Positions 33,971 to 53,728 of a stretch of DNA of 64,000 nt are shown in pieces. Positions within the stretch are counted from its first letter, which is position 1. Each line of letters opens with the position of its first letter. Source of the stretch: Flavobacterium sp. (lineage in GTDB: Bacteria > Bacteroidota > Bacteroidia > Flavobacteriales > Flavobacteriaceae); the NCBI RefSeq assembly GCF_032153895.1, contig NZ_JALDYN010000011.1, positions 3,937 to 67,936 of the forward strand. Direction: 5' to 3'. Below the pieces are notes generated by a model. It did no database searches and was not told the DNA's origin. It was given only the letters and a program-made list of their open reading frames with translations. The position numbers and the translations under genes were made by a program.

Positions 33971-34083
33971 TTTAACACTTTAAAAGCAAATTGACTTCTT
34001 CTCGAATTTCAAGTACAAATTTTAATTCATCCGAAATCACAATTGTTTATAAACTCTATTGTCAAATTCAAAAACCCATAATC

Positions 34084-34118
34084 AGTATCTAAAAAAGTAA
34101 ATTAGTTTTTTAGATACT
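34084..34118. terminator. Terminator between convergent genes
   Basis: AGTATCTAAAAAA / TTTTTTAGATACT, a perfect 13-bp stem. Confidence 0.7.
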
Positions 34119-34358
34119 TTATTCAAAATCAGACAAAATTTCACATACTGGATTATGCAATAAAGCAACTTTGATAATGTCATTTGTACTAAAAAAGCCT
34201 TCCACACGCAAAACTCTGTCGATATCCTCAAGGTCAAAATCAACTTTAAGATTTGGGTATATGAAAAGTAAATCACTTTTAATTTTCTGCATTTGTTTAC
34301 CATTTTTAATAGAAGTTTTAAAAACTTCTATTTGATACTTACTTACATCATTCATCAT
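34119..34358 (-). CDS. Small ferredoxin/HMA-like-fold hypothetical protein
   Basis: IEVFKTSI...VDFDLEDIDRVLRVEG; start at MMND preferred, although the frame is open to 34601. Confidence 0.55.
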   Translation of the reverse strand: MMNDVSKYQIEVFKTSIKNGKQMQKIKSDLLFIYPNLKVDFDLEDIDRVLRVEGFFSTNDIIKVALLHNPVCEILSDFE

Positions 34359-34619
34359 TTTCCGTTTTGCATTAAGAATTCTTTTGTAGACAATTGTATT
34401 ATTTTTAAAAACCCATTGAATATCACTTAAACTCATATCTGTTTTCATTATGGAAAGAAAATAATTTATATTACTTTTTCTTGTTATGTTTAATTCTGTT
34501 TTTGGCGATTTTTTAAGAAATTCATAATTAATCCAGAAAAAATCATATTCTGAAATATTTTTTAGATTAAAATGATAATTCTCCAGTTTTGCTTTTATCA
34601 TATTTAAAAAATTAAGGTT

Positions 34620-34910
34620 TTATCTTTTTCTTGGATCTGTATTTTTATATTCTCTCAATACTTTTTGAAACGCAATAATATCAACAGGCTTATGAAACAA
34701 TTCTATTGCTGAAGGGTATTTCAAAAGTAATTTTTGTGGTCGTGTTGGTCTTTTCTCGAAACCTCCATCGCAATTTGGGCATGTATTTTCTAATATATTT
34801 TGTACACAGTCTAAACAGAATGTACACTCGAAACTACATATCATGGCTTGATCGCTATCATTTGGAAGCGATTGTCCGCAATTTTCACAATTAAGTCTTA
34901 ATTCTAACAT
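34620..34910 (-). CDS. DUF1272-family Cys-rich protein
   Basis: MLELRLNCENC...ICSFECTFCLDC...CPNCDG. Confidence 0.88.
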   Translation of the reverse strand: MLELRLNCENCGQSLPNDSDQAMICSFECTFCLDCVQNILENTCPNCDGGFEKRPTRPQKLLLKYPSAIELFHKPVDIIAFQKVLREYKNTDPRKR

Positions 34911-35017
34911 AAACTATTATTTTGGGTTTAATTAGACATTGTTTAAATCTTCATAAAGCGTTCTTCACATACTTTATGATTGTAATTTTTACTTTTATAG
35001 TTGTTCTTAAAACGTCA

Positions 35018-35788
35018 TTATTTTAAAGTAGCTAATAAATAGATTACATAACCCGATTTCCCTTTCACTTTATTGATTTCCCAATTGAAAGCATCTTGAT
35101 TTTCAAGCCCTTTAACCAATTCTTTCATTTCTTCAACAGAATAGGTTCTTAAGGACGAAACTACTCCGTCCCATAAAACACAGATAGGAACTATTGGAAT
35201 CAAATAGGTAAAAATTATGCGCCCAAAACTAAACGGCTTAATGAATGGCGTTACCAACAAAACCGATATTGGTGAAAGCAGCATTACCATAATACTCAGA
35301 AAACTTCGCTCCTGAGCTTCAAAAATGGCTATATTACTTTTGGTATTTACTGCATTTTGTAATATCTGCTTGGCGTCATCAGTTTCAAAATGATGGAATG
35401 ACAAAAATTGAGTACGTAATCCTTTAAAATTCTCAGGAACATTGCGGGCATCCACAGGTTCTGCAACAAATTCAAAATTTTCGGCTTGTTTTTGAGTATA
35501 GCGAAAAGCTTTTTTGTTGGGATAATAGTCGGTCAAGAGAATTTTCAAATCTGGCTTAGTTTTTAAAAGTTCGGTATTGAGCCAAAGCAGACCACCTCCG
35601 CCGCCTGAAGCTAAATCTATTATTTGATTGTTTTTAGAAGCCTCTAATCCTTTTTCAATTACAGGAATTACAGGTTGGTACAATTTTGTTTTATTGGATA
35701 GAAACTGTAAAAAATCTGTCATGTAATTTCTAAGAAAAGTTGGAAACCATTTTTGGTCTTCAATTTCAAATAAGTGAATACGACTCAT
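35018..35788 (-). CDS. Class I SAM-dependent methyltransferase-like protein
   Basis: IIDLASGGGG, LTDYYP, VDAR, FHHF, WDGVVSSLRTY. Confidence 0.75.
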   Translation of the reverse strand: MSRIHLFEIEDQKWFPTFLRNYMTDFLQFLSNKTKLYQPVIPVIEKGLEASKNNQIIDLASGGGGGLLWLNTELLKTKPDLKILLTDYYPNKKAFRYTQKQAENFEFVAEPVDARNVPENFKGLRTQFLSFHHFETDDAKQILQNAVNTKSNIAIFEAQERSFLSIMVMLLSPISVLLVTPFIKPFSFGRIIFTYLIPIVPICVLWDGVVSSLRTYSVEEMKELVKGLENQDAFNWEINKVKGKSGYVIYLLATLK

Positions 35789-35812
35789 ACACTTTTAATT
35801 TAATGATTGATA

Positions 35813-36931
35813 TTAATTGGTTTTTTTATAATTGATTACTGCCCAAATATTAAAAACTAAAGCAAAAACGATGATACAGGCAAAATGTGGCAATACGTTG
35901 TGAAAACCGCTGCCTTTTAAAATAAACATCCGCATCACATCAATCAGATAGGCAACAGGATTCAATTTGGAAATCCAGATGGCCCATTCCGGCATACTAT
36001 CGATAGGCGTAAACAAGCCACCCAAAAGCAAGAAAATCAATTGAAAGAAAAACATGACCAGCATCGCCTGTTGTTGAGATTCACAGTAAGTTGAAACCAA
36101 CAAACCAAAACCTAGTATTGCTAGCAAATAAATCGCCACAAAAGCATACATAACCAACATATTGCCTTCTGGCACAATACCATATATGTATCGTGCCAAT
36201 AACAATCCTATCGTAAAAACGATATTAGCCAATATCCAGAATGGAATAAGTTTACCAAGTATGAAATGGTGTTTTTTTATAGGAGTTACGTTAATCTGCT
36301 CGATAGTACCAATTTCCTTTTCTTTAACAATATTGAGCGTAGCAAGAAAACCTCCAACCAAAGTAACCAACAGGGCCAGAATTCCGGGTACAAAATACTT
36401 TTGATAATTGAGGTTTTTATTGAACCAGTTTTCAGATCTTATTTCGATTGTTGGCATTTCATAGAAAGATGAAGGATTTTTCAATTTCATTCGGATATTA
36501 TGATTAAAATCGGCTATGGTCTGTTGCAGATAATTGGCTCCCAAACCCGCTTTACTTCCGTTAATGGCATTTACGGCAACAAATAACTTTTCTTCATTAT
36601 CACGGATTAGATTTCGCTCGAATCCTTTTGGAATTTCCAAAATTAAATCGGCTGCATCGTTTTCAATATTTTTCAAAGCTTTTGTATAAGACGACTCATA
36701 ACTCTGTAATTTGAAATAAGGAGTCCCCGAAATTTTACTGATTAATTCTTTAGAATAACCCGATTTATCATTATCAACAATAGAAATATTGATGTTTTTC
36801 ACTTCATAATTGGCAGCTAAAGGCAATATCAATAGCTGGATGGTTGGCATCATAAAAATAATAGCCAAAATCGATTTGTTCCTGAATATCTGACGGAACT
36901 CTTTTCGTAGGAGAAAAAGTAATGTTTTCAT
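35813..36931 (-). CDS. ABC-2 transporter permease (YbhR-like)
   Basis: KEFRQIFRNK, VKEKEIGTIEQINVTP, LFTPIDSMP. Confidence 0.92.
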   Translation of the reverse strand: MKTLLFLLRKEFRQIFRNKSILAIIFMMPTIQLLILPLAANYEVKNINISIVDNDKSGYSKELISKISGTPYFKLQSYESSYTKALKNIENDAADLILEIPKGFERNLIRDNEEKLFVAVNAINGSKAGLGANYLQQTIADFNHNIRMKLKNPSSFYEMPTIEIRSENWFNKNLNYQKYFVPGILALLVTLVGGFLATLNIVKEKEIGTIEQINVTPIKKHHFILGKLIPFWILANIVFTIGLLLARYIYGIVPEGNMLVMYAFVAIYLLAILGFGLLVSTYCESQQQAMLVMFFFQLIFLLLGGLFTPIDSMPEWAIWISKLNPVAYLIDVMRMFILKGSGFHNVLPHFACIIVFALVFNIWAVINYKKTN

Positions 36932-39800: not shown

Positions 39801-40691
39801 TTACAATTTAACTTCGCCGTACATGCCAATTTTAAGCAATCCGTCGTTTTTCACTTTTATTTTAACAGCATAAACCAAATTAGCTCTCTCTTCTTTTGTT
39901 TGTATCGTTTTTGGTGTAAACTCGGCTTTGTCGCTAATCCATTCAATAATTCCTTCGTATTTTTTATAGCTATCGGCTTCAGAATCAACAAAAACAGTTA
40001 CTTTTTGCCCGATTTTAACTTTAGAAAATTGATTACCAGTTATGTAGGCTCTTAAGGTTATCGTCGATAAATCAGCTATTTTGTACAATGCTTTACCAGT
40101 TGATGTCATCTCGCTCTCTTCAGCAAATTTTGTAATAACGCTTCCATCCAATTCATTGATAATCTGTGATTTTTCGAGCTGGTCGTTGATTTGCTCAATT
40201 TGTGCCTTAATAGCTTCCGCCTCTTCACCTAAACTTGAAACAGAATTTCCTAAAGAAGTGTGTTGCGCAGCAATTTTCTTCTTAATGATATCTATCTGAC
40301 TACCGGCATCATCCAATTGCTTACGGGTTGCTGCATCCGCTTTTACCAAATTTGCAATACGGTTTTGCTCTCTTCTAGCATGCTTCAAATCTTCCTGTAA
40401 AGCAGCAGTTTCAGCGGCAATATTTGGTTTTCTACTTATAATTGCACTCATTTGTGCTTCCAATTGTTTTTTCTTTAGCGACAACTGAACGGTATCAATA
40501 TATCCTAATTTTTGACCTGCTTTAAGAACCTGTCCTTCTTCAATACTCAATTCTTTGATAAGGCCACTTGCCTGTGCTGATACAATGGTTTCTACAGCTT
40601 CAAATGTTCCTGTTGCATCGAATTCATTTTCGTTGTTACCACATGATAATAAGAACAGTGCTGCAATTACTATGATTAATTTAGTTTTCAT
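39801..40691 (-). CDS. HlyD-family membrane-fusion lipoprotein (YbhG-like)
   Basis: Lipobox LLSC; EFTPKTIQT...LVYAVK...LKIGM. Confidence 0.9.
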   Translation of the reverse strand: MKTKLIIVIAALFLLSCGNNENEFDATGTFEAVETIVSAQASGLIKELSIEEGQVLKAGQKLGYIDTVQLSLKKKQLEAQMSAIISRKPNIAAETAALQEDLKHARREQNRIANLVKADAATRKQLDDAGSQIDIIKKKIAAQHTSLGNSVSSLGEEAEAIKAQIEQINDQLEKSQIINELDGSVITKFAEESEMTSTGKALYKIADLSTITLRAYITGNQFSKVKIGQKVTVFVDSEADSYKKYEGIIEWISDKAEFTPKTIQTKEERANLVYAVKIKVKNDGLLKIGMYGEVKL

Positions 40692-40704
40692 ATTTCTTAA
40701 AGAA

Positions 40705-41958
40705 TTAGTTTCCAGTTATTGTTTTTTCTTTGTACAATGCCATGAGTAATTCTATTTCATGGGCTTTTTTGTTTTGCATTGCTTTGTTTTCTTCGTTTAC
40801 CTCCTGCAAGTAATCATTACTGTCAATGACACCATTTTCCAGTTGTGCTAATGAAGCTTTTTTAATACTGCTTCTTAACATTATTATCTTTGCATCTGTA
40901 TCAATGAACTCTTGTAACTTACTGATTTCGGCATTTTGTTGTTTGAGTTGCTGATTAGTATTGAAAAGAAATGTTTCTCGATCTGCGTTATTCATTTCTT
41001 TTTTGATATCTAAAATTGCTTTCTCTTTTTTCTTGGTAAACGACATCGACCAGTTTAGACGAATACCTCCGATAAAATAACTTTGCACACCTTCTTCAAA
41101 CATATTTAATCCCGGGTTTGACATTCCAGATTGAGCAAACAAACTTATTTTGGGAGTATCTCTTATACTGATTAATTTTTTATCGGCATCCAGCTTCTGA
41201 TTTTTATAATCGAATAATTGCAGTTCCGGGCGATTGATTGTTGCAACTGTTGATGTCGGAACTGGTTTTTCAAAAATGCTCTTTTCATTGATTTCAAAAC
41301 CTGTAAAAAGCGACAACATTTGAACAAAAGCAATTTTGCTGTTTTTGATTTCGATGGCTTGTAATTCTGCTTTTAACAGTTCTGCCTTCAGGATTTCAGC
41401 ACTGCTGCGAAATGCGGTACCATTAATAATTTGTGCTTCCACTGTTTTAAGCCCGATTTTAATATCGGTTTTCAACAATTCGTTTTGTGCTGCTTGTTCG
41501 TCTAAAAGCAGGATTCCAAAATATAAATTATTAACTCTGTCTTTTACCGCATACAATTCAACCTCAACAGATTGCAAATCAATTTTATTGATTGCCTGTT
41601 CAGTTTTTTTTCTGTTTTTGATAACACCTCCGTCAAAAATCAATTGGTTAACATCCGTATAAGCTTTGTATTGTGTTTGGCTTATCTCGGGCATATCAAC
41701 ACCCGGAATTGATACCGGAAATTTAGTTACATCAGATTGCCAAGACAATTGATTAACCCCCGAAAGCTGAGGAAGATATCCCTTAGAAATATTAGAAATC
41801 GAATACTCAAGGCTCTTTGAAATAAGTTCCTTCTTTTTCGTCGATGGATACTGCTCTATGGCAGCTTTTTGACATTCTTCTAAAGTTAGGATTCTCACTT
41901 CCTGAGCTTTAGAAAACGTTGTTAAAAACAACAACAGTAATACATAATTCATTTTCAT
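40705..41958 (-). CDS. TolC-family outer-membrane efflux protein
   Basis: Signal peptide, YLPQL, coiled coils, LENGVI; operon context. Confidence 0.88.
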   Translation of the reverse strand: MKMNYVLLLLFLTTFSKAQEVRILTLEECQKAAIEQYPSTKKKELISKSLEYSISNISKGYLPQLSGVNQLSWQSDVTKFPVSIPGVDMPEISQTQYKAYTDVNQLIFDGGVIKNRKKTEQAINKIDLQSVEVELYAVKDRVNNLYFGILLLDEQAAQNELLKTDIKIGLKTVEAQIINGTAFRSSAEILKAELLKAELQAIEIKNSKIAFVQMLSLFTGFEINEKSIFEKPVPTSTVATINRPELQLFDYKNQKLDADKKLISIRDTPKISLFAQSGMSNPGLNMFEEGVQSYFIGGIRLNWSMSFTKKKEKAILDIKKEMNNADRETFLFNTNQQLKQQNAEISKLQEFIDTDAKIIMLRSSIKKASLAQLENGVIDSNDYLQEVNEENKAMQNKKAHEIELLMALYKEKTITGN

Positions 41959-41973
41959 TTTTTTGTTTTTAAT

Positions 41974-42002
41974 TTAAAAATTTGTTTTAATCATTTGATT
42001 AA
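41974..42002. promoter_or_regulatory. Candidate TetR operator (tandem) upstream of tolC
   Basis: Palindrome TTAATCA-TT-TGATTAA (41987-42002) with an adjacent AAAAATTTGTT. Confidence 0.6.
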
Positions 42003-42021
42003 TTTATGGATAAAAAAATAG

Positions 42022-42615
42022 CTATTCTTTTTCCAGAAGAATTTTTACCCAATGTGGAATTAAAGTTCTCCTTTCATCCATCAGCACTTCAAAAGTTTCA
42101 TTAGTTGCCATTCCTGAAGCAAACATCATTGGTTTTGCCAAAAAAGGAAAAACCGTAAGACCAAGAACACTAATCATAAAATGAACTGGATTAACCTCTG
42201 GCTTTTTATCATACAATTGTTTTGCAAAGGATGAATTAACAATAGCATCGAGCTTGATTCTTCCGTCAAAAAGCTGAGGATTATTTTTCAACTCACTAAA
42301 TACAAAAATTGGCAAATCAGGATTCTCAAGGAGCATTTTTGTATACGTTTCAACAATGGCTTGTACTTTATCTTCTAGCGTTAAGCTTTCGTTTGTTAGA
42401 ACCGGAAAAAGAACACCAAAAATTTGTTGCACTTTTTCAAATATCACCTGATGAAACAACTTTTCTTTACTTCTAAAGTAATAATTCAACAAGGCTAAAT
42501 TAATTCCAGCTTCATCTGCAATATCTCTAGTCCTGGTAGCAGCATAACCTTTTTTCATAAACACAACTCTGGCCGCTTCTTTAATTCTCTCTTCAGTAGT
42601 TTCGTCTTTTTTCAA
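42022..42615 (-). CDS. TetR/AcrR-family regulator
   Basis: KGYAATRTRDIADEAGINLALLNYYFRSKE; TTG start; TATCTTTG box at 42639-42646 (-). Confidence 0.93.
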   Translation of the reverse strand: MKKDETTEERIKEAARVVFMKKGYAATRTRDIADEAGINLALLNYYFRSKEKLFHQVIFEKVQQIFGVLFPVLTNESLTLEDKVQAIVETYTKMLLENPDLPIFVFSELKNNPQLFDGRIKLDAIVNSSFAKQLYDKKPEVNPVHFMISVLGLTVFPFLAKPMMFASGMATNETFEVLMDERRTLIPHWVKILLEKE

Positions 42616-42660
42616 TTTTTAGGGCTTTAATTTCAGGACAAAGATATAACTTTTTTTGAT

Positions 42661-42703
42661 TTAAACAAATTTTTTAATCAAATGATTGATTTTTTTAACT
42701 TTG
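42661..42703. promoter_or_regulatory. Candidate TetR operator (tandem) overlapping the tetR -33 region, next to a divergent TAACTTTG box (42696-42703)
   Basis: TTAAACAAATTTTTTA plus TTAATCAAATGATTGA, matching the tolC-upstream site. Confidence 0.55.
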
Positions 42704-42869
42704 CTCCTAATCGACACTGATTCAAACCTATAGAATTAAACTTTAAAACTAGAAGAAAAAAATATAAAAGAAGATTCTAAGTATAATACTTAATTCCATT
42801 TAACCGCTCAATATCAAACAATAAGCTAACATATTATTCACTAACTTTATAAAACCTATTTGAAATACA

Positions 42870-45173
42870 ATGAATTTTAACGAATTTAAGCATAGCCCTT
42901 TTGAAATAAAGATTTCTTTCCACAAAGTATTAGAAACCTTAGAAGATATAGCTGCTTCCAATATTGATTATCGCTCGAATTATGCGAAAGCATTGATAGA
43001 AAAAACTTCGGAGATTTCCAATATAAGGAACGGTTTTGAGAATATGGATCAAATTAATGAGAATGAAACATTAATTCAACATTTGCTTGCAGATTTATTT
43101 CCAACAGCTCTAACTCATAATGAAATAAAAGCCGTTACTATTCCTTTTTTAAATATTACTTTCAATTATACTGAAAGATTTAAAAAAATATTGGCTGATG
43201 CTGGAAGTGAATTTGACATTTCCATCAGAGATTTCGACAAAGATCAGTTTTATGTAATGAATTGTTGTTTGATTCTCAACGCCCATTACAATCAAAAGTT
43301 TGATTTCAGCAAACCACTCTACTATGATATTCCTGATTCTGAAGGCATAACAAGACACTATCGCATTCTATACAATGCCGATTTTCTAGAAATTATACCA
43401 ACAGAAAAGTCCGTTACAATTACTCAAAAAGATATCGAAATTCTAATTGACAATTTTGAAAACGTAGAACTATGGAAAGAAAAATTTCCACCTCAAAGTT
43501 GGCTATTGAAAGGTTTTGGTATCGTTGTACTTTATGATGCAACTACAGAAAATGCAATTTCAAATCTTAAAACAGGCTTGAACAAACTTAATGATGAAGA
43601 AACAAAACCTAATATTGATAACTTTTCTAAAATATTTCAATCGATTTTTAGAATATCAAACATCAAGATTGGCTTTACCTCATTATTAGGAAAGGAAATC
43701 ATTCCGAATGAAAGACGAATTAATAGTTTCATTTTAGGCAATCGATCCGAAATTATGTGCAAAACCATATTGCCTGTAAGCATATACGACACTTTAATTA
43801 ATCAGCAGAAAAAAGTTGAAATTTCAAATGTAGAAAGATTAAAACAAAATATTGAATACCAAAGTTTTGCCAACCATCTGCTTGAGCAAAATATTCATAG
43901 TTGCATACTGGCTCCCGTTGTCAAAGAAAATAAGCTGTTTGGAATTTTAGAAATTGTTACCTCAAAAAAAAATGAACTAAATAGTCTTAATTCGAATAGA
44001 CTAGACATAATTATGCCTTTTATAGCCGATACAATTGATCGATACAATGCCAGTGTTTTGAATAAAATAGAAGCAATTATACAAAAAGAGTATACTAAAA
44101 TACATTCAAGCGTTTATTGGAAATTTCAAGACAATGTTTTAAACTATATCATTTCAAGCGATCATAAGTCGGATTACGAATTCAGTGATATTGTCTTTAA
44201 AGATGTTTATCCGCTTTACGGACAAATAGATATCAAAGAATCATCGGGTACCAGAAATTATGCTGTTCAGCATGACATTCAAAACCAATTGAACGATTTA
44301 ATTAATATTATTTCATTACTGCATCAAAAATCAAATCTGAAAATCCTGGAACAACGAAAATTCGAACTCGAATCCTATTTAAAGGAACTCCAAACCAATT
44401 TAAAAGCCGATACAGAGCAACAAATAAACCGTTACGTAGAAACAGAAATTCATCCAATTTTACAAAACGCAATAAATAGTGCTACTGGAAATTCAGAAAA
44501 CATCCAGGAGTATTTTGAAAAAATAGACGATACAACAGGTACTTACTACAACGAACGTAAAAAATTTGACGCCACACTTACCACTATTAATAAAAAACTT
44601 AGTGTGGTTTTGGATGACAAACAAAAAGAAGCACAAGCCATCTTTCCGCATTACTTTGAACGCTTTAATACCGATGGTGTTGAACACAATATGTACATTG
44701 GAAACTCCATTGCGCCACAATCCAACTTTAGTCTAACTTATTTGTACAACATGCGTTTGTGGCAACTTCAGGTACTTGCAGAAATGGAAAGGGAACACTA
44801 CGCTTTAAAAGATTCGCTTCCTTATCCGTTAGAAGTTACTTCACTGATTTTGGTTTTCAGTTCACCGATTACCATTCGTTTCCGTATGGATGAAAAGCGC
44901 TTTGATGTAGACGGTTCGTACAATGCTCGTTACGAAGTCGTTAAAAAACGAATAGATAAAGCCATGGAAAAAGGAACCCAAAAGCGCATAACTGAACAAG
45001 GCAAAATAACCATTGTATATTCTCATGCTGATGAAGAAAAAGAATACAAAAAATACATCGAATACCTTCAGTTTCAAAAAATTCTGGAACCAACAACTGA
45101 GTTTTTGGAAGTAGAAGATTTACAAGGTGTTTCCGGTTTAAAAGCTATCCGTGTAAAAGTAAAACTGAATTAA
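42870..45173 (+). CDS. GAF-domain protein with a C-terminal divergent class III nucleotidyl-cyclase-like domain
   Basis: GAF signature SCILAPVVKENKLFGILEIVT; GQIDIKESS, NTDGVE, RFDVDGSYNARYE, LQGVSGL line up with cyclase elements (by eye). Confidence 0.6.
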   Translation: MNFNEFKHSPFEIKISFHKVLETLEDIAASNIDYRSNYAKALIEKTSEISNIRNGFENMDQINENETLIQHLLADLFPTALTHNEIKAVTIPFLNITFNYTERFKKILADAGSEFDISIRDFDKDQFYVMNCCLILNAHYNQKFDFSKPLYYDIPDSEGITRHYRILYNADFLEIIPTEKSVTITQKDIEILIDNFENVELWKEKFPPQSWLLKGFGIVVLYDATTENAISNLKTGLNKLNDEETKPNIDNFSKIFQSIFRISNIKIGFTSLLGKEIIPNERRINSFILGNRSEIMCKTILPVSIYDTLINQQKKVEISNVERLKQNIEYQSFANHLLEQNIHSCILAPVVKENKLFGILEIVTSKKNELNSLNSNRLDIIMPFIADTIDRYNASVLNKIEAIIQKEYTKIHSSVYWKFQDNVLNYIISSDHKSDYEFSDIVFKDVYPLYGQIDIKESSGTRNYAVQHDIQNQLNDLINIISLLHQKSNLKILEQRKFELESYLKELQTNLKADTEQQINRYVETEIHPILQNAINSATGNSENIQEYFEKIDDTTGTYYNERKKFDATLTTINKKLSVVLDDKQKEAQAIFPHYFERFNTDGVEHNMYIGNSIAPQSNFSLTYLYNMRLWQLQVLAEMEREHYALKDSLPYPLEVTSLILVFSSPITIRFRMDEKRFDVDGSYNARYEVVKKRIDKAMEKGTQKRITEQGKITIVYSHADEEKEYKKYIEYLQFQKILEPTTEFLEVEDLQGVSGLKAIRVKVKLN

Positions 45174-46360
45174 TATCCAGACGTTTTAAAAGCCCAGACA
45201 AAAGCAAAAACCGATGCAATTAGTCCTATCATAAAAATAGTGTACGTCATTCGCAAAAGTTTGTATTTTCGGTTTAAAACCAAGCCGAGATAATACAAGT
45301 CTTTTATCATGGAATTGTACAAATAATCACGGTCTTTCATCAGTTCATTTACTGCCCATTCATATTCGGGCAACGGCATTTTGTAGAAATTCCCGAAGAA
45401 CAACAAATTCACTTTTTTGTCTTCAATGTCTTTTCGGGTAAATGTGCCACTGGTTACTTTTGGCCGTGTTGACATAATCGCAAAAATGATAGTTACAACA
45501 CTAGACATTAAAAGTATAAAAGTAGGAATTACCAAATGAGCATTTCCCGGACTATCCAGTTTCGGAATCAAGGTCGATAACGAAATCGAAATAATAATCG
45601 CATTTACCGAAAGTAATATATTGGCCTTGCTGTCTGCAATTTCACTCAAACGGGTGTGGTTGTTTAACGTAGTACGAAACATTGTATCGATACCGCGTTC
45701 CGGTCGTTCCAGCTTTTCCAGCTTCTTCTTATTGATTTTGGATTTTGAAAACTCTTTTTCGCCGCCGGAAAGTTTCTTGATTTGTTCGTGTACCAAAAAA
45801 ATGTTTCTGTCTTTTTGCTGCTGCCAATTGGCCTTAGCGTAATCTGTAAAATAGCGATGACAATTAACCAAAACGTGACGATTTTCGGTAGCCCATTCTA
45901 TATCGGTGTAGGTTTTATGCTGTATTAGCTGCCATTCATCTCGCAATAATTGACATATAGCCATATAATTTTCATTACCAAAATGCCAATAGTCAGCATC
46001 TTTTATGATTTTCTCCAATAAATTTTCCGGCTGATAATCTACTTTGGTAGCTTGAATTAATTTAGCCACCTTGTCAATAAATTCTTTATCTTTATTGTGA
46101 TTTTCAAGGAATCCGCGAACAATCGATATACTTTGTTCTTCATGATTTGAAAATCCTTTAATATAACCGGTATCGTGAAACCATGCTGCAAGAAGTACTA
46201 TTTCTAAATCTTCTGTTTTTACATTTTCATTCAAGGCAAGTAAATTAGCTGCCGAAACCACTTTTTGGGTATGGTTGAAGTTGTGATAAACGTAAGAATC
46301 CGAAAGCTGTTCTTTAAAAAGATTGAACACGAAATCTTCAGCAGTTTGCATGATATTCAT
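45170..46360 (-). CDS. HD phosphohydrolase fused to a Pycsar-effector (PycTM/DUF5706)-like membrane domain
   Basis: YHNFNH, AWFHDTG, KDAD; then ADSKANILL, TM pair, RP...LLFFGNF, RKYKLLR and a TM helix. Confidence 0.8.
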   Translation of the reverse strand: MNIMQTAEDFVFNLFKEQLSDSYVYHNFNHTQKVVSAANLLALNENVKTEDLEIVLLAAWFHDTGYIKGFSNHEEQSISIVRGFLENHNKDKEFIDKVAKLIQATKVDYQPENLLEKIIKDADYWHFGNENYMAICQLLRDEWQLIQHKTYTDIEWATENRHVLVNCHRYFTDYAKANWQQQKDRNIFLVHEQIKKLSGGEKEFSKSKINKKKLEKLERPERGIDTMFRTTLNNHTRLSEIADSKANILLSVNAIIISISLSTLIPKLDSPGNAHLVIPTFILLMSSVVTIIFAIMSTRPKVTSGTFTRKDIEDKKVNLLFFGNFYKMPLPEYEWAVNELMKDRDYLYNSMIKDLYYLGLVLNRKYKLLRMTYTIFMIGLIASVFAFVWAFKTSGY

Positions 46361-46386
46361 AAACGTATTTTTAATACCACTAATTT

Positions 46387-49300
46387 ATGAAATTGTTTTG
46401 TGTAATTAACGTAAAACAAATACGTAAGCCATTTACTTACGCATTAATACTCTTTTTTCTGCATTCTTGTGCAACATACAAACCAGATTTTGGTAAAAAA
46501 ACTGCTGCTACACTTTCCGAAAATCAATCGGATTCTATAAAAACATTACATACCTTTTATTTAATTGGTGATGCCGGAAATGCTGACGAACCTCAAACCC
46601 AAAACACTTTAGCACTTTTAGAAGAAAATTTGAAAAAAGCAGATAAAAATGCTACACTCCTATTTCTTGGCGACAACATTTATCCTTTAGGAATGCCGGC
46701 CAAAAAGAAAGATCCTGAACGGGAATTAGCGGAAATCAAATTGAAAAATCAGCTTAAAATTACTGAAAACTTTAAGGGTAAAACCATTTTTATTCCCGGA
46801 AATCACGATTGGTATCACGGTATCAAAGGCTTAAAAGAACAGGAAACTTTTGTAAATGATTACTTGAAAGCTAAAAAAGCGTTTTTGCCGCAAAACAGTT
46901 GTGCTTTAGAAAGTGTAAAAATCAATAATGATGTAACCCTGATTATCGTTGACAGTCAATGGTTTTTAGAAGATTGGGATAAAATTCCGCTAATTAACGA
47001 CGAGTGCGACATCAAAACCCGTGAAAAGTTTTTTGAAGAATTTGAAAGCCTCATCAACAAGAACCAAAATAAGGTTACGATTTTGGCAATTCATCATCCG
47101 TTAATGAGCAACGGACCACACGGCGGTCAGTTTTCGTGGGACAAACAAATTTATCCGTCAAAAGCCAAAATTCCAACGCCAGTTTTGGGTTCATTCATTA
47201 ATTTATTGCGAAAAACATCCGGAATCAGTCCTCAGGACATCCAAAACAAGCAATATTCTGCTTTTATCAACAGAATTTTGCCAATCATTCAGAACAATGA
47301 CAATATTGTGGTCGTTTCCGGACACGAACACAATTTACAATACATAGAAAAAGATGGTTTAAAACAAATTATCAGTGGTTCGGCATCCAAAAGAGAAGCG
47401 GCAAAAGCGATTTATCCAGTCAATTTTTCTTTTGGCGGTAACGGATATGCCGTCTTAAAAGTAAAGGAAAACAAAAGTACCGAAGTACAGTTCATCAGCA
47501 CCGAAAACAACACCGAAAAAGAACTTTTCTATCATCAGGTTTTAAAGCCGCATATTGCCAAAGATTCTATTTATCCGTATAAAGCGGACAAGACTTTTGC
47601 AGCATCGGTTTATCATCCTGAAATGACAAAAAAGAGCGGATTTTATCGCTTTTTGTGGGGCGAACATTATCGCAACTATTACGGTAAAGCTATTGAAGCT
47701 CCCGTTGTCTACCTCGACACCCTTTACGGTGGCTTAAAACCCTCAATCGAAGGCGGCGGTCATCAGTCGTTATCATTGCGCTTAAAAGATAAAAACGGAA
47801 AAGAATACGTAATGCGCGGTCTCAGAAAAAGCGCTACCCGATTTTTGCAAACCGTTGCGTTTAGAGACCAAAACATTGAAAACGAATTCAAAAACACGAC
47901 TGCAGAATCTTTTATTTACGATTATTACACTACAGCGCATCCGTTCACACCATTTATTATTGGTGAGTTAGCTGATAAAGCCGGAATTTATCATTCAAAT
48001 CCAAAACTGTTTTATGTTCCCAAACAAAATGCTTTAGGAAAATACAATGAAAATTTTGGCGACGAATTGTATATGATTGAAGAACGTCCTACCGATGAGC
48101 ACAAAGATCTTGCGAGTTTCGGTAAACCGGACGCCATTGTTGGCAGCGATGATGTTTTGGCAAATTTGCGCAAAGATGAAAAATACGAAGTTGATGAAAC
48201 TGCCTATATCAGAGCGCGATTATTCGACATGCTCATTGGCGATTGGGACCGACACATTGACCAATGGCGTTGGGCGGAATATAAAAAAGACGACAAAATT
48301 ATTTACAAGCCAATTCCTCGAGATCGCGACCAGGCTTTTGCTAAAATTGACGGTAACTTACTGGAATTAATTGCCAATGGAGCGCCTGCAACAAGGCACA
48401 TGAAATCGTTTAAAAAAGAGTTTGCCGATGTAAAATGGTTCAATTTTGCGGCAAATTCGCTTGATTTGGCGTTCATTAAAAATAATGATATTGAAACTTG
48501 GAAAGCTCAGGCTCAAGATATTGTGAAAAACTTAACGGATGATGCTATTGATTCGGCTTTTGCAAAACTTCCGAAAGAAATGAATACTGATGCGACAACT
48601 GCTAACATTGTTGCAACCTTAAAAGAAAGAAAAAAAGGATTAGAAGCCTATGCCGTAAAATACCATCATGTTCTTGAGAAAAAAATTCTGATTTTAGGAA
48701 CCGACAAAAAAGACAAATTCATAATAACCCGACTAAACAACGGAAAAACAAAAATCGAAGTACTGCGAATTATCAAGGGAGAAGAACAACTTCAGTTTTC
48801 CAAAATTTATGATAAAAAATACACTAAAAACATCTGGATTTATGGTCTTGATGAAGATGACGATTTTATCGTAAACGGTGATGGCGGTTCTCCTATTTTT
48901 ATCCGATTAATTGGTGGACAAAACAAAGACACTTACACCATCAACAACGGAAAAGGATTAAAAATTCATGATTTTAAATCGAAGCCGAATACTTTCAACT
49001 CCAACAAAAATGCAAGAGTTGCGCTTTCTGACGATTACGACATCAATGAATATTATTACAAACGCCCAACATTAGATGCAACGATGGTTTTACCTTCGAT
49101 CGGTTCCAATCCGGATGATGGTGTAAAATTAGGAGCTGCAATTACTTATACCAAATACGGGTTTATTAATGCTCCGTTTACCCGAAAACATACTTTTAAA
49201 GGCAATTACTATTTTGCCACCGAAGGTTTTGAACTCTTTTACAACGGCATTCTCACCAAAGCCATCAAAAATTGGAATTTTGAATTGGATGCGCAATACA

Positions 49301-50118
49301 CTACACCCAATTTCAGTATTAATTATTTTGGTTATGGCAATGAAACTATAAATGAAGATGATGCATTTGGCATGGATTTCAATCGAGTTAAAATTCAGCA
49401 GTTTAAAGTGGCTCCATCCATTAGACGAATTGGCCGTCATGGCAGCGATTTACAATTTTCTGCAAGTTTTGAAAATATCGAAGTGGAAGGAACCAATAAT
49501 AGATTCGTTAATATTCCGGGAGCCGTTTCTTCTACAATATTTGAATACCAGCAATTTGCCGGTTTAGGAATGCGATTTGGTTTTGAAAATTATGACAACA
49601 TTTCCAATCCAACTATGGGAATGACGTTTTATGTTTTAGCGAATTGGAAAATGAACCTTTCAGACAACAAGCGAAACTTTCCATATCTTGAAGGTGCTTA
49701 CGGAATCAGTCATAAATTATCCACCAATGGTCGCCTTGTTTTCGGAACACTTTTAAAAGGAAAAATGCTTTTAAACAACAATTTCGAGTTTTATCAAGGT
49801 GCAACATTAGGCGGAGATTACGATTTAAGAGGTTACCGAGCGCAACGTTATTTGGGTAAACAATCATTTTATCAAAGCTCGGATTTGCGTTTCACACTAG
49901 GTAAAATCAGTCAAAGTTTAATACCGATGCGTTACGGAATTTTGGGAGGATACGATTACGGACGCGTTTGGGTTGATGGCGAAAATTCCAACAAATGGCA
50001 TCAGGCTGTTGGTGGCGGAATTTGGCTTAACGGCTTAAATTCAATAACTGGCCGCTTAACCTATTTTAATGGAACTGACGGAAACAGAATAGCGTTCGGA
50101 TTAGGTTTCGGATTCTAA
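46387..50118 (+). CDS. Lipoprotein: purple-acid-phosphatase-type metallophosphoesterase + atypical kinase-like domain + Omp85/BamA-ShlB beta-barrel
   Basis: Lipobox LHSC; GDAG, GDNIY, GNHD, HHP, GHEH; GGGHQS, IGDWDRH..QW, RDRDQAF; LRGY and terminal GLGFGF. Confidence 0.8.
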   Translation: MKLFCVINVKQIRKPFTYALILFFLHSCATYKPDFGKKTAATLSENQSDSIKTLHTFYLIGDAGNADEPQTQNTLALLEENLKKADKNATLLFLGDNIYPLGMPAKKKDPERELAEIKLKNQLKITENFKGKTIFIPGNHDWYHGIKGLKEQETFVNDYLKAKKAFLPQNSCALESVKINNDVTLIIVDSQWFLEDWDKIPLINDECDIKTREKFFEEFESLINKNQNKVTILAIHHPLMSNGPHGGQFSWDKQIYPSKAKIPTPVLGSFINLLRKTSGISPQDIQNKQYSAFINRILPIIQNNDNIVVVSGHEHNLQYIEKDGLKQIISGSASKREAAKAIYPVNFSFGGNGYAVLKVKENKSTEVQFISTENNTEKELFYHQVLKPHIAKDSIYPYKADKTFAASVYHPEMTKKSGFYRFLWGEHYRNYYGKAIEAPVVYLDTLYGGLKPSIEGGGHQSLSLRLKDKNGKEYVMRGLRKSATRFLQTVAFRDQNIENEFKNTTAESFIYDYYTTAHPFTPFIIGELADKAGIYHSNPKLFYVPKQNALGKYNENFGDELYMIEERPTDEHKDLASFGKPDAIVGSDDVLANLRKDEKYEVDETAYIRARLFDMLIGDWDRHIDQWRWAEYKKDDKIIYKPIPRDRDQAFAKIDGNLLELIANGAPATRHMKSFKKEFADVKWFNFAANSLDLAFIKNNDIETWKAQAQDIVKNLTDDAIDSAFAKLPKEMNTDATTANIVATLKERKKGLEAYAVKYHHVLEKKILILGTDKKDKFIITRLNNGKTKIEVLRIIKGEEQLQFSKIYDKKYTKNIWIYGLDEDDDFIVNGDGGSPIFIRLIGGQNKDTYTINNGKGLKIHDFKSKPNTFNSNKNARVALSDDYDINEYYYKRPTLDATMVLPSIGSNPDDGVKLGAAITYTKYGFINAPFTRKHTFKGNYYFATEGFELFYNGILTKAIKNWNFELDAQYTTPNFSINYFGYGNETINEDDAFGMDFNRVKIQQFKVAPSIRRIGRHGSDLQFSASFENIEVEGTNNRFVNIPGAVSSTIFEYQQFAGLGMRFGFENYDNISNPTMGMTFYVLANWKMNLSDNKRNFPYLEGAYGISHKLSTNGRLVFGTLLKGKMLLNNNFEFYQGATLGGDYDLRGYRAQRYLGKQSFYQSSDLRFTLGKISQSLIPMRYGILGGYDYGRVWVDGENSNKWHQAVGGGIWLNGLNSITGRLTYFNGTDGNRIAFGLGFGF

Positions 50119-50126
50119 CAAAACAA

Positions 50127-50984
50127 TTATGGATTCAAATCAAACTGATATACAATGCCACCACTTTTCTTCACTTTCTCATCAGCAATAAAAAGCGTGT
50201 TGCCGTTTTTAAAAGCAATCGCTTCTTTTTGGGAATTATGATTCAGATTAATTTCCGATATTTTACCATCGAAAAAAGCATCCTCTTTAAAATCTTCAAA
50301 AAGCCATACTTTCTGGTGACTTAAAATTGCAATCCGCTTTTGATTAGGACTAATTGCCGCACCCGTTACTGCTCCGGAATTGAATGTATCATCGGTTTTA
50401 TACGAACCCATTAAAGTCGCCTGATGATTTCCAGCAGTCATCGGAACACGATACAACAAAGTGGTTCCGTCAAAATTCTTGCTTCGGTTTTTGGTAAAAA
50501 TATAGAAGTGATTGTTGTACACGATAAAAGCTTCGGCATCATATAACAATTCCAATTTTTTAGGTGGAAAATCTTTTTGTTCGGGATAGCTGAAACTAAT
50601 TTTAGCAACGGCATCGGTTTCTTCAGTGTCTAACGAATCTTTACTGATTTTATAAATGTACAAATCTTTTCGGATATTGTCGTTGTTGCCGAAATCACCG
50701 ATGTAGATATTCCCTTCGGTATCGCTGGCTAAATCTTCCCAATCGATATTTTCGGCATTGGCAATTGTAATTTCATTAGCAATATCACCTGCTTCGGTTA
50801 GCTGAAAAAGAACATTTTTATTTCCACTATCGGCAATAGCCCAAATAGAGTTATCCACTGAAGTTATCCCCGAAATCTCTTTTAATTTTTTCGGTAAATC
50901 GAAGAGCTTTTCCGGTTGGGTTTCCGAAGGTGTACAACGCAAAAACAATAATCCTATAACAAAAAATGGAACGACTTTTTTCAT
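50127..50984 (-). CDS. Beta-propeller lipoprotein (SdiA-regulated/phytase-like)
   Basis: Lipobox FLRC; KEISGI, DWEDL, DIGNN-like GDFGNN, DAEAF, QKEAI repeats. Confidence 0.65.
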   Translation of the reverse strand: MKKVVPFFVIGLLFLRCTPSETQPEKLFDLPKKLKEISGITSVDNSIWAIADSGNKNVLFQLTEAGDIANEITIANAENIDWEDLASDTEGNIYIGDFGNNDNIRKDLYIYKISKDSLDTEETDAVAKISFSYPEQKDFPPKKLELLYDAEAFIVYNNHFYIFTKNRSKNFDGTTLLYRVPMTAGNHQATLMGSYKTDDTFNSGAVTGAAISPNQKRIAILSHQKVWLFEDFKEDAFFDGKISEINLNHNSQKEAIAFKNGNTLFIADEKVKKSGGIVYQFDLNP

Positions 50985-51073
50985 GCTTAATTTTTACACT
51001 ACTAAATTACTGCTTTTAACAACATTCTCTAAAACAATAGTTATTTTTGTGCTGCAGAAAAAAAAACTCATTC

Positions 51074-51652
51074 ATGTTACAGCTCGTTTTCGCTTCCAAC
51101 AACAAAAATAAAATCAAAGAAATTCAACAATTAGTTCCTTCAGATATACGAATTCTCAGTTTAGAAGATATTGGTTGCGATGTCGATATTCCTGAAACTG
51201 CCGAAACCATTGAAGGAAACGCCATTCTAAAAGCCAATTATGTAACCAAAAACTATGGTTATCCTTGTTTTGCTGACGACAGTGGCTTGGAAGTCGATGC
51301 TCTAAACGGCGAACCCGGAGTTTATTCTGCTCGTTATGCCGGATTGCAGCGAAATGATGATGATAATATGATCAAAGTCTTGACCAATCTTCAAAATCAA
51401 TCCAACCGCAAAGCCAATTTTAAAACGGTTATTGCTTTAAACCTCAACGGAGAGCAACATTTATTCACCGGAATCATCAACGGAGAAATCATTCATGAAA
51501 AACGCGGAACAAATGGTTTTGGCTACGATCCGATTTTTGTAGCTGAAGGATACCACAAAACCTTTGCAGAACTTTCTATGGAAGAAAAATCCGCCATCAG
51601 TCATCGTGGAAAAGCGGTGAAACAACTGATTTCATATCTTCAAAAAATGTAG
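51074..51652 (+). CDS. rdgB: Non-canonical purine NTP pyrophosphatase (RdgB/HAM1)
   Basis: ASNNKNK, ADDSGL, GVYSARY, GFGYDPIF, SHRGKA; TATTTTTG box at 51042-51049. Confidence 0.94.
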   Translation: MLQLVFASNNKNKIKEIQQLVPSDIRILSLEDIGCDVDIPETAETIEGNAILKANYVTKNYGYPCFADDSGLEVDALNGEPGVYSARYAGLQRNDDDNMIKVLTNLQNQSNRKANFKTVIALNLNGEQHLFTGIINGEIIHEKRGTNGFGYDPIFVAEGYHKTFAELSMEEKSAISHRGKAVKQLISYLQKM

Positions 51653-51829: not shown

Positions 51830-53728
51830 ATGAACAAATTTGAACAATTGGGTCTTAACGAGTCGCTACTGCTGGCGATCAAAGATCTAGGATTTGAGAA
51901 TCCGTCAGAGGTACAGGAAAAAGCGATTCCCCTATTATTGGAAAAAGACACCGATATTGTGGCGTTGGCGCAAACAGGAACAGGAAAAACAGCCGCTTTC
52001 GGTTTTCCGTTGATCCAGAAAATTGACGCTGAGGACAGAAACACTCAGGCTTTGATTTTATCGCCAACTCGCGAACTTTGTTTACAGATTACCAACGAAA
52101 TTAAGCAGTATTCTAAATATGTAAAAGGACTTCACACCGTAGCGGTTTATGGCGGTGCAAGCATTACAGAACAAGCGAAAGATGTAAGACGCGGAGCGCA
52201 GATTATTGTAGCGACTCCAGGTCGTATGCAAGATATGATCAACCGTGGGATGGTGAACATCAAAAACATCAATTTCTGTGTTTTGGATGAGGCCGATGAG
52301 ATGTTGAACATGGGATTCTATGACGATATCACCTCTATCCTATCCGATACACCAGAAGATAAATCTACTTGGTTATTCTCGGCTACAATGCCTCAGGAAG
52401 TTGCGCGTATTGCACGTGAATTCATGAGAAAGCCGTTAGAAATTACTGTTGGTCACAAAAACTCAGGTTCGCAAAATGTATCGCACGAATTTTATTTAGT
52501 AAATGCTCGTGACCGTTATGCAGCTTTAAAACGTTTAGCGGATGCTAACCCGGATATTTTCTCGGTTATTTTCTGTAGAACTAAAAGAGATACTCAGGCT
52601 GTTGCCGAAAAATTAATCGAAGACGGTTATAATGCAGCTGCTTTACACGGAGATTTATCGCAGGCACAACGTGATGCGGTTATGAAATCGTTCCGTGGAA
52701 GACAAATTCAGATGTTGGTTGCGACTGACGTTGCCGCTCGTGGTATCGACGTCGATGATGTTACTCACGTTATCAACTACCAATTACCAGACGAAGTTGA
52801 AACGTATACGCACCGTTCAGGTCGTACAGGTCGTGCCGGAAAATCAGGTACTTCTTTGGTAATTATCACGAAAAGTGAATTGCGTAAGATTTCTCAAATC
52901 GAGCGTATCATCAAGATGAAATTCGAAGAGAAACCGATTCCTTCTGGTATTGAAATCTGCGAAATTCAGTTATTCCACTTAGCTAACAGAATTAAAGATG
53001 TTGAAGTAGATCACGAAATCGACACCTATTTACCAGCTATCGAGGAAGTATTGAAAGATATTCCGAAAGAGGAATTAATCAAAAAAATGGTTTCTGTTGA
53101 ATTTAACCGTTTCCTTGCTTATTATAAAAAATCAAGAGATATCAGTTCTGAAACAGCAGGAAACCGCAGAGATGCTGGTGCTGCTCCAACTGAAGGCGCT
53201 GTTCGTTATTTCATCAACATCGGAGCCAGAGATGATTTCGATTGGATGTCATTGAAAGACTTCTTACGCGATACGATTGGCTTAGGTAAAGACGATTTAT
53301 TTAAAGTAGACGTAAAAGAAGGTTTCTCTTTCTTCAATACTGATGCTGAGCATGTAGAAAAAGTAATGGACGTTTTGAACAACTTCCATTTAGAAGGAAG
53401 AAAAATCAACGTTGAAATTTCTAAAAACGACGGAGCATCTAACAGCCGAAGAAGAGATCACGGCGGACGCGGTGGAGAAAGAAGAAGTTTCGGTGGTGGA
53501 AGAGACAGAGATTCAAGAGATCGCGACTCAAGAGGTGGTGACAGAGACAGAGCGCCACGCGGTGATAGAGGCTCAAGAGGTGAAAGTCGATTTGGCGGAG
53601 AAAAACGTTCAGACAGAAGAAGCAGTTCTTCAGATGACAGAGCGCCAAGAAACGAAAGACGTTCAGACAGAGCACCACGTCGTTCCGACTCAAGCGCACC
53701 TAAAGAAAGAAGACCAAGAAGAAGCTAA
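51830..53728 (+). CDS. deaD: DEAD-box RNA helicase, DeaD/CsdA type with RNA-binding domain and RGG/RD tail
   Basis: AQTGTGKT, PTREL, DEAD, SAT, HRSGRTGRAG; TACTTTTG box at 51801-51808. Confidence 0.9.
   Translation: MNKFEQLGLNESLLLAIKDLGFENPSEVQEKAIPLLLEKDTDIVALAQTGTGKTAAFGFPLIQKIDAEDRNTQALILSPTRELCLQITNEIKQYSKYVKGLHTVAVYGGASITEQAKDVRRGAQIIVATPGRMQDMINRGMVNIKNINFCVLDEADEMLNMGFYDDITSILSDTPEDKSTWLFSATMPQEVARIAREFMRKPLEITVGHKNSGSQNVSHEFYLVNARDRYAALKRLADANPDIFSVIFCRTKRDTQAVAEKLIEDGYNAAALHGDLSQAQRDAVMKSFRGRQIQMLVATDVAARGIDVDDVTHVINYQLPDEVETYTHRSGRTGRAGKSGTSLVIITKSELRKISQIERIIKMKFEEKPIPSGIEICEIQLFHLANRIKDVEVDHEIDTYLPAIEEVLKDIPKEELIKKMVSVEFNRFLAYYKKSRDISSETAGNRRDAGAAPTEGAVRYFINIGARDDFDWMSLKDFLRDTIGLGKDDLFKVDVKEGFSFFNTDAEHVEKVMDVLNNFHLEGRKINVEISKNDGASNSRRRDHGGRGGERRSFGGGRDRDSRDRDSRGGDRDRAPRGDRGSRGESRFGGEKRSDRRSSSSDDRAPRNERRSDRAPRRSDSSAPKERRPRRS

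Follow-up and report, generated by a model that had tools for sequence, protein, structure and literature searches.

We analysed a window of 64,000 nucleotides (the whole stretch of contig NZ_JALDYN010000011.1 under study) from a Flavobacterium whose closest named relative is F. enshiense, with a protein identity of 74-77%. The subject of this analysis is a set of four interlocked open reading frames in the window, here called g1 to g4. g1 (42870-45173, + strand, 767 residues) encodes a GAF protein, g2 (45170-46360, - strand, 396 residues) a membrane protein that joins an HD domain to a PycTM domain, g3 (46387-50118, + strand, 1243 residues) a predicted outer-membrane fusion protein and g4 (50127-50984, - strand, 285 residues) a predicted lipoprotein. 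Overall, the four genes are strongly linked as a functional module, which is probably a physiological relative of the Pycsar system and not a phage defence.

Organization and conservation of the module

The packing of the four genes is far from chance. The four reading frames lie where the first-pass annotation had placed them, and direct reading of the DNA confirmed the close junctions that it described: the stop codons of the convergent genes g1 and g2 share 4 bp (45170-45173), the convergent genes g3 and g4 are 8 bp apart (50119-50126), and a spacer of 26 bp (46361-46386) separates the start codons of the divergent genes g2 and g3. Both the length and the sequence of this spacer are conserved. 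The median g2-g3 spacing is 26 bp, with at most 50 bp at 72 of 77 loci, and the consensus from 29 loci is CAT-AATTTaGTgGTaTaAAAAtatTcttT-ATG. The conserved spacer sequence reads AATTTaGTgGTaTaAAAA..., and its equivalent is found at position 9975-10000 of loci L003-L080. The spacer may be a shared regulatory element of g2 and g3, and the promoters of these two genes must overlap the neighbouring coding regions.

The conservation of the neighbourhood was quantified in a collection with one genome per species, which contained at least 552 relatives of g2. The neighbours were examined for the best 80, from Flavobacteriales, among which the genera were Flavobacterium, Chryseobacterium, Myroides, Moheibacter, Bergeyella, Aureibaculum, Gelidibacter and Mariniflexile, covering at least two families. 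The g2 orthologue was adjoined by g1 at 77 of the 80 loci, by g3 at 78 and by g4 at 70, and the orientation was kept. The next most conserved neighbour appeared at only 37 loci. By contrast, the TetR, TolC, rdgB and DEAD helicase genes seen around the module in the window were beside the g2 orthologue at none of the 80. The first-pass annotation had noted that rdgB (51047-51652, + strand) follows g4; given its absence from these loci, it is a chance neighbour and was ruled out as a fifth member.

The module is present in at least three orders, and its gene order varies. Aureibaculum (L071) has g1, g2 and g3 all on one strand. Mucilaginibacter rubeus (Sphingobacteriales, L081) has a one-strand operon of HD-PycTM, PPK1, g4, g3 and g1, whose genes are 1-52 bp apart, and in locus L093 the order is g4-g3-g2 ... 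g1. In Flavobacterium difficile, g2 is split: g1, with 968 residues, carries the HD half at its C-terminal end (42% identity to the HD domain of g2, E 4e-44), a PycTM-only gene with 66% identity to the C-terminal half of g2 lies 1 bp downstream, and g3 and then g4 follow, all on one strand. By the Rosetta-stone argument, this fusion points to joint action of g1, the HD domain and PycTM. Because the synteny survives rearrangement and is accompanied by a domain-fusion event, the four genes are functionally linked, as the first-pass annotation had supposed.

The genes are core and syntenic, and the module is inherited vertically across Bacteroidota and is no mobile defence system. No relatives of g1 or g2 were found on 2.9 million viral contigs. 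Among 72,556 plasmids, the matches were confined to large non-mobilizable replicons of Cytophagales and Haliovirga. Around the 80 g2 loci, no defence-island context was seen. These results agree with the earlier suggestion that the genes serve physiology rather than abortive defence.

Domains of the encoded proteins

The assignment of g2 as HD plus PycTM, proposed in the first pass, is solid. The HD phosphohydrolase domain (45761..46360, - strand; residues 1-200) is N-terminal and cytoplasmic, matches Pfam HD (PF01966, E 1e-9) and has metal-binding residues, H26, H30, H62, D63 and D123, that are invariant in g2 orthologues (alignment A1). It is a generic HD domain, with no HD-GYP and no Rel-family match and with weak similarity to HD-CE and PDEase_I. 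The C-terminal PycTM domain (45173..45685, - strand; residues 226-396) is the most conserved part of g2. It matches PF18967 with an E value of 1.8e-36 (125 bits versus a cut-off of 27) and the PADLOC PycTM models with E values of 3.2e-17, 2e-12 and 9e-12. The hydropathy profile has three hydrophobic segments, at residues 246-268, 273-300 and 368-394. The NCBI name for a protein of this type is 'Pycsar system effector family protein'. PADLOC models of CBASS 2TM effectors match this region as well (E 4e-11 to 1e-4), and these effectors are likewise small membrane proteins gated by nucleotide signals; unlike CBASS, the module has neither a CD-NTase nor a SAVED or STING-type sensor and lies in no defence context.

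From its sequence, g3 is predicted to be an outer-membrane lipoprotein-type fusion protein. It begins with a lipoprotein-type signal peptide (...ALILFFLHSC), its homologues are named metallophosphoesterase, and its AlphaFold2 (AF2) model has a predicted local distance difference test score (pLDDT) of 80 and a predicted template modelling score of 0.73. The first domain is a calcineurin-like metallophosphoesterase of the purple-acid-phosphatase/GAP50-like type (46552..47421, + strand; residues 56-345; Pfam Metallophos PF00149, E 1.1e-12). In Foldseek, the model of this domain matched GAP50 (3tgh) at 3.9e-10 with a TMt of 0.65. Its GD, GDN, GNHD, HH and GHxH residues do not vary among 77 orthologues, and the active site is intact. 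The C-terminal part (49072..50115, + strand; residues ~896-1243) is predicted to form a 16-strand Omp85-type beta-barrel. It matched Sam50, BamA and TamA in Foldseek at 1e-8 to 1e-6 with a TMt of up to 0.69; g3 also matched NCBIfam Omp85_fam at 3e-13, below the curated cut-off, and g3 homologues match Pfam ShlB and Omp85.

Between these parts lies a middle domain (47569..48696, + strand; residues ~395-770) with a tentative HipA/CtkA-like kinase fold. The best match of its profile in the PDB was CtkA of H. pylori (3akj), at an E value of only 0.13, with the catalytic loops aligned; in the same alignment, LIGDWDRHxDQWRW of g3 falls on the CtkA catalytic loop LLGNFDRHNGNWGF. The invariant motifs of the domain are GGGxQS, GDWDRHxDQW and PxDRDQxF, with Q in the place where the kinase D-x-H-x-x-N loop has N, and there is a weak match to PADLOC PDC-M03A. 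Pfam searches with the domain, its sub-regions and 14 orthologues at E values up to 10 gave no match, and no kinase was among the top 50 Foldseek matches of the g3 model, a list dominated by the barrel. On this sequence likeness a kinase is plausible. Of the phosphatase-kinase-Omp85 architecture that had been proposed for g3, the phosphoesterase and the barrel stood, and the kinase part was reduced to a weak resemblance to HipA/CtkA kinases.

The arrangement of enzyme domains N-terminal to a 16-strand Omp85 barrel resembles that of Type Vd/PlpD-like proteins and of BamA/TamA. It differs from them by the metallophosphoesterase and HipA/CtkA-like domain instead of patatin and by the lipoprotein-type signal peptide, and no POTRA was identified in g3, where the beta-rich residues ~771-895 were not analysed separately. 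The metallophosphoesterase 'MPPE' of Riemerella was considered as a counterpart, but g3 was not equated with it, as MPPE is described as secreted by the type IX secretion system (PMC13595192).

g4 is a predicted beta-propeller lipoprotein of the SdiA-regulated/phytase-like type, with an N-terminus ending in ...LLFLRC. Its Pfam matches are weak in the window protein and stronger in distant orthologues (SdiA-regulated, 1.1e-5). A hidden Markov model of g4 recovered neighbours within the module in L081, L089, L092, L093 and L094 (E 2e-10 to 1e-6; 1.1e-13). Sequence searches against the PDB gave nothing useful for either g4 or g1. The first-pass statement that all four genes carry nucleotide- or phosphate-handling motifs applies to g2, by its HD domain, and to g3, by its metallophosphoesterase; for g1 and g4 such motifs can only be presumed.

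g1 is cytoplasmic, with no transmembrane or hydrophobic segment predicted from hydropathy, and its more than 3458 homologues are named 'GAF domain-containing protein'. The GAF domain (43758..44090, + strand; residues ~297-407) is preceded by a PAS/GAF-like region (residues ~124-270). Judged by its profile matches, it is real but divergent: Pfam finds it weakly in the window protein (E 0.008) and in 31 of 32 orthologues, with a best E value of 1.7e-6, and the g1 model matches the GAF structures 3ksf, 3rfb and PDE6 in Foldseek. According to the AF2 secondary structure, a beta-hairpin (residues 441-456) and a bundle of long helices (residues 458-591) follow at 44106..44642 (+ strand), with a pLDDT of 80-94 compared with 77 for the whole model. 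The rest of the protein (44646..45170, + strand; residues 593-767) is a C-terminal alpha/beta domain that, on its sequence, is a discrete orphan family. It has motifs of its own, FPHYxE[KR]xxxDG, FD[VI][DE]G..N.RYE..KKR and LQG..G..A.RV, and no sequence match in Pfam, PADLOC or the PDB. In 16 sequences with 27-56% identity, D454, R462 and D469 are invariant, as are E597, D602, G603, D679, K692, K693, R694, K697, R706 and R761 in the C-terminal domain. A profile of the last 183 residues matched only 959 clusters among 1.84 billion representatives, and among the best 150 clusters nearly all members are ~760-830 residues long with the domain at the same place; this search was saturated by g1 orthologues and informs on the size of the family, not on distant architectures. 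Against viral structures, Foldseek gave nothing significant for the g1 model.

PPK1, class III cyclases and other neighbours

The phosphate role guessed at in the first pass received independent support and was strengthened, because PPK1 sits within the module in four distant lineages. These have four different arrangements (L081, L083/84, L085/86 and L092). Besides the operon of Mucilaginibacter, we found the order HD-PycTM, His_Phos_1, PPK1 ... g1, g1; the order g1, PycTM, PPK1; and g1 and PPK1 convergent with HD-PycTM, after which come g4 and g3. Phosphatases of the His_Phos_1 and PAP2 families also occur near the module in relatives. A PAP2-family phosphatase is directly beside g1 in Hymenobacter nivis (L090 12453-13229) and beside g3 in L092 (20466-21308). 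The tandem g1 paralogues of L083 (7446-12496), of 824 and 831 residues, come from one metagenome-assembled genome (MAG), where an ECF (extracytoplasmic function) sigma factor and two unknown genes separate the pair from HD-PycTM, His_Phos_1 and PPK1.

Known polyphosphate systems combine PPK1 with PPX/GppA, or take the form of the yeast VTC complex. The module may be compared with them in its coupling to PPK1 in genomes and in having membrane components and a sensor domain beside a polyphosphate polymerase. It differs from them in that no PPX/GppA, CHAD, SPX or VTC domains were detected in the module, and in that the link to PPK1 is seen only outside Flavobacteriales.

A second kind of partner, beside the g2 orthologue in Persicobacteraceae, is a class III cyclase. 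In Fulvitalea axinellae (Cytophagales), a membrane-anchored class III cyclase comes after g3, g4 and HD-PycTM; it matches PF00211 above the Pfam threshold, and no g1 was found in the stretch examined there (9-kb flanks). Persicobacter has a member of the same cyclase family convergent with HD-PycTM, and a Bacteroidota MAG (L089) has a third member at a distance of 3 kb from g1. All three match the PADLOC PycC models. These transmembrane class III cyclases (L094 10444-11652; L098 10812-11996, - strand; L089 1063-2211, - strand) have ~390 residues with an N-terminal multi-transmembrane region, and share the motifs IFMFxDxxxS[ST], YQY[VI]GDEVV and EIAYxG[DE]VLN.AAR. The PycC-like cyclases beside the g2 orthologues of Fulvitalea and Persicobacter support the relation to Pycsar that the first-pass annotation had drawn.

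Other genes were seen near single members of the module. In L093 (14519-15577), a response regulator with a cyclic-nucleotide (cNMP)-binding domain and a Crp-type helix-turn-helix lies 2 kb downstream of g1, beside a PAS histidine kinase. An NDH-2-like FAD (flavin adenine dinucleotide) oxidoreductase is directly upstream of g1 in L085 (8729-9985) or of g2 in L097 (7612-8904), and DUF3857/transglutaminase genes are upstream of g2 in Mucilaginibacter (L081 1-1823) and Chondrinema (L097 3002-6914). Outside Bacteroidota, g1 homologues were found with no g2, g3 or g4 nearby in Haliovirga abyssi (Fusobacteriota, L095 8629-10950) and in Melioribacteraceae (L091). The Haliovirga gene lies on a 298-kb replicon and is surrounded by transposases, which suggests horizontal transfer.

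In the window itself, g1 is directly preceded by an efflux cluster (39801-42615) made up of a TetR regulator, a TolC-like outer-membrane factor and an HlyD-like adaptor, and this cluster is not conserved with the module. The G+C content is 0.30-0.32 at 32001-36000 and 42001-44000, compared with ~0.36-0.40 elsewhere; the second of these regions spans the TetR-g1 intergenic region and the N-terminal half of g1. rdgB, which encodes a non-canonical purine nucleoside triphosphate pyrophosphatase, follows g4 in the window genome only. Its listed TTG start is probably ~9 codons too early, since the family match starts at residue 12, where an ATG (MLQLVF...) lies. The DEAD-box RNA helicase encoded at 51830-53728 ends in a long tail of low complexity (~110 residues), in which Arg, Asp, Ser and Gly abound.

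A possible nucleotide-signal circuit and its alternatives

The first-pass annotation had cast the genes as a writer, a reader/eraser and an envelope kinase/phosphatase output, and we infer a related scheme. g1 would sense a cytoplasmic metabolite and make or convert a nucleotide-type signal. PycTM would read this signal at the inner membrane as in Pycsar, without killing the cell, and the HD domain would destroy it. The circuit would be coupled to the phosphate economy, given that PPK1, the enzyme of polyphosphate synthesis, is in the same module in several lineages. In the envelope, g3, with a periplasm-facing phosphoesterase and a kinase-like domain on an Omp85 barrel, and g4, as a phytase-like propeller, would process phosphoesters. 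Information would presumably flow from the circuit to PPK1, g3 and g4. The parts of this scheme differ in strength. We consider it quite probable that the module is physiological and linked to phosphate or polyphosphate, and reasonably probable that a nucleotide signal of some kind is involved. The whole, a nucleotide-signal circuit of g1 and HD-PycTM tied to the phosphate economy, is in our judgement the best explanation and slightly better supported than doubted.

Like Pycsar, the module encodes a protein with a PycTM-family half beside a sensor/enzyme partner, and the g2 orthologues of Fulvitalea and Persicobacter have a PycC-like class III cyclase as this partner. Unlike Pycsar, the module has in g1 a partner that is no recognisable cyclase, an HD hydrolase fused to PycTM or to g1, and a core, syntenic and vertical mode of inheritance; it travels with PPK1, a g3-type phosphoesterase-Omp85 fusion and a propeller lipoprotein, and in the window the g1/g2 pair is convergent and forms no operon. 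Another comparison is with writer-eraser fusions, such as the Rel/SpoT synthetase with its HD hydrolase or GGDEF with EAL or HD-GYP. By analogy, the HD hydrolase of the module would be attached to a putative signal maker (the g1-HD protein of F. difficile) or to a receptor (g2), a pattern known from loci that both produce and break down a signal. The difference is that catalysis by g1 is only putative, and that the HD domain of g2 belongs to neither the HD-GYP nor the Rel type.

The critical question is whether g1 makes the signal. The only hints of a cyclase come from the AlphaFold/Foldseek ranking and from the genomic position. The top Foldseek matches of the g1 model, with TM-scores of ~0.18, were sensor-coiled-coil-cyclases, namely 6fht, a phytochrome-adenylate cyclase (8.5e-6), 6et7, a phytochrome-diguanylate cyclase, and soluble guanylate cyclase from human (6jt0/8hbe), a protein that lacks GAF, and these sensor-cyclases ranked above plain GAF domains. 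In the AF2 model, the order of elements from residue 441 fits the palm-type beta-alpha-beta-beta-alpha-beta cyclase fold if it may contain a helical insert of 100 residues. The invariant D454 and D602 stand where the metal-binding Asp residues of this fold would be expected, after strand 1 and in the strand 2-3 hairpin.

A number of observations weigh against this reading of g1 and of the module. Pfam searches including PF00211, with 32 orthologues at E values up to 10, found only GAF in g1; the PADLOC PycC models gave no match at E values up to 1, and the profile search against the PDB gave no cyclase match. When three versions of the C-terminal region were compared by hhalign with 9-12 genuine cyclase domains (PDB sequences retrieved with two consensus-like probes), the probability was at most 2.2%, compared with 97.6% for the control, the transmembrane cyclase family against PDB cyclase domains. 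The Foldseek TM-scores are taken over whole multidomain chains, so that the contribution of the C-terminal domain is not separable. N685 and R687, the putative counterparts of the transition-state Asn and Arg on helix 4 of cyclases, occur in most g1 sequences and are not invariant: N685 is H in Myroides and L027, and R687 is Y in L080. As for the module, neither the window nor any of the 80 Flavobacteriales loci contains PPK1, g1 is found by itself in Hymenobacter, Melioribacteraceae, Haliovirga and a metagenome contig (L088), and the presence of both g1 and a true cyclase in L089 fits g1 as a reader as well as a writer. On the sequence tests, the label of GAF-cyclase given to g1 in the first pass is not upheld in the sense of a recognisable cyclase. 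Since the TM-scores are low and refer to whole chains, the cyclase idea is a fold-level lead and no finding. Six collinear cyclase-like motifs seen by eye in g1 were not relied on, as the statistics give them no backing. A reading of the g1 'TDGVxE' motif as PP2C was also rejected, for wrong motif spacing and no SpoIIE/PP2C match in 32 orthologues.

A role of g1 as writer is favoured by its position, by the fold hint, by the invariant acidic residues and by the true cyclase that appears to have displaced it in Fulvitalea; we hold this role to be nearly an even call, with slightly more doubt than belief. In favour of g1 as a GAF-type reader instead are the homology tests, which found no cyclase, and L089, where g1 and a cyclase occur together. 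In the corresponding alternative, g1 would bind a cyclic nucleotide or metabolite through GAF and, as a receptor or regulator, control HD-PycTM and/or PPK1, and a separate class III cyclase encoded elsewhere would make the signal. GAF domains are classic cNMP- and metabolite-binding modules, and a dedicated cyclase family does accompany the module. Nevertheless, no such cyclase is in the window or at the 80 loci, the Fulvitalea cyclase occupies the usual place of g1 with no g1 in the flanks, which looks like displacement by an analogue, and the invariant Asp, Glu, Arg and Lys residues of the g1 C-terminal domain are typical of a catalytic site. We regard this alternative as unlikely.

Still less likely is a machine that handles or traffics polyphosphate with no second messenger. 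Here PPK1 would make the polymer at the inner membrane, HD-PycTM and g1 would hold it, trim it or pass it across the membrane, and g3 and g4 would use or degrade it in the periplasm or at the outer membrane, where the kinase-like domain might work with polyphosphate instead of ATP. This would suit the embedding of PPK1 in four lineages, the phosphoesterase and phytase-like protein among the envelope parts, the many invariant Lys and Arg residues of g1 and the location of a kinase-like domain in a compartment that has no ATP. However, nothing indicates that a polyanion can pass through a PycTM domain with three transmembrane segments, this reading does not account for the sensor domains or for the neighbouring PycC-like cyclases, and PPK1 is unlinked to the module in Flavobacteriales.

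A genuine anti-phage Pycsar variant, acting by abortive infection with an HD-regulated PycTM effector, is highly improbable. g2 does provide a PycTM-type membrane effector by PF18967 and by the PADLOC PycTM models, with matches to CBASS effector models as well, the NCBI name points the same way, and PycC-like cyclases adjoin g2 orthologues in two genera. But no cyclase is detectable in the window, and where a class III cyclase is adjacent to g2, in Fulvitalea and Persicobacter only, it is a different gene from g1. Instead of patchy mobile spread in defence islands, there are at least 552 g2 relatives at one genome per species, of which the 80 examined share neighbours across at least two families; the module reaches at least three orders outside any defence-island context seen, has no relatives on viral contigs or mobilizable plasmids, and is linked to PPK1 and envelope enzymes. 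That the genes are four unrelated neighbours packed by coincidence is hardly credible: the strands alternate in the window, so the genes are not one operon there, but the synteny is kept while the flanks are conserved at none of the 80 loci, other lineages have one-strand operons, and the HD domain moves between g2 and g1.

The circuit of g1 and HD-PycTM can be extended to a broader proposal, which we consider doubtful. In this proposal, g1 would found a new family of sensor-gated nucleotide-signal synthases that cannot be recognised from sequence and that counts ~960 clusters, nearly all of ~790 residues, and whose product would be read by a non-lethal housekeeping PycTM and erased by HD throughout the phylum, setting polyphosphate synthesis by PPK1 and the processing of envelope phosphoesters, with the Pycsar and CBASS 2TM effectors as its offshoots or parents.

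In the literature searched, there was no description of HD-PycTM proteins, of this gene neighbourhood or of the link to PPK1, and PycTM appeared only as the Pycsar effector; the module is apparently undescribed. It exposes an orphan domain of catalytic appearance and an unusual outer-membrane fusion of a phosphatase, a kinase-like domain and an Omp85 barrel. Defence systems may be overcounted in genome surveys, since hundreds of Bacteroidota genomes have a core gene to which the name 'Pycsar system effector family protein' is automatically given. The regulation of PPK1 and polyphosphate is a long-standing question, for which the module offers tractable candidates, g1 and HD-PycTM, in Flavobacterium johnsoniae and Mucilaginibacter. 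If our interpretation is true, PycTM, known only as a cell-killing anti-phage effector, would have a core physiological relative across Bacteroidota, and this would bear on how defence systems arise from normal signalling or are tamed into it.

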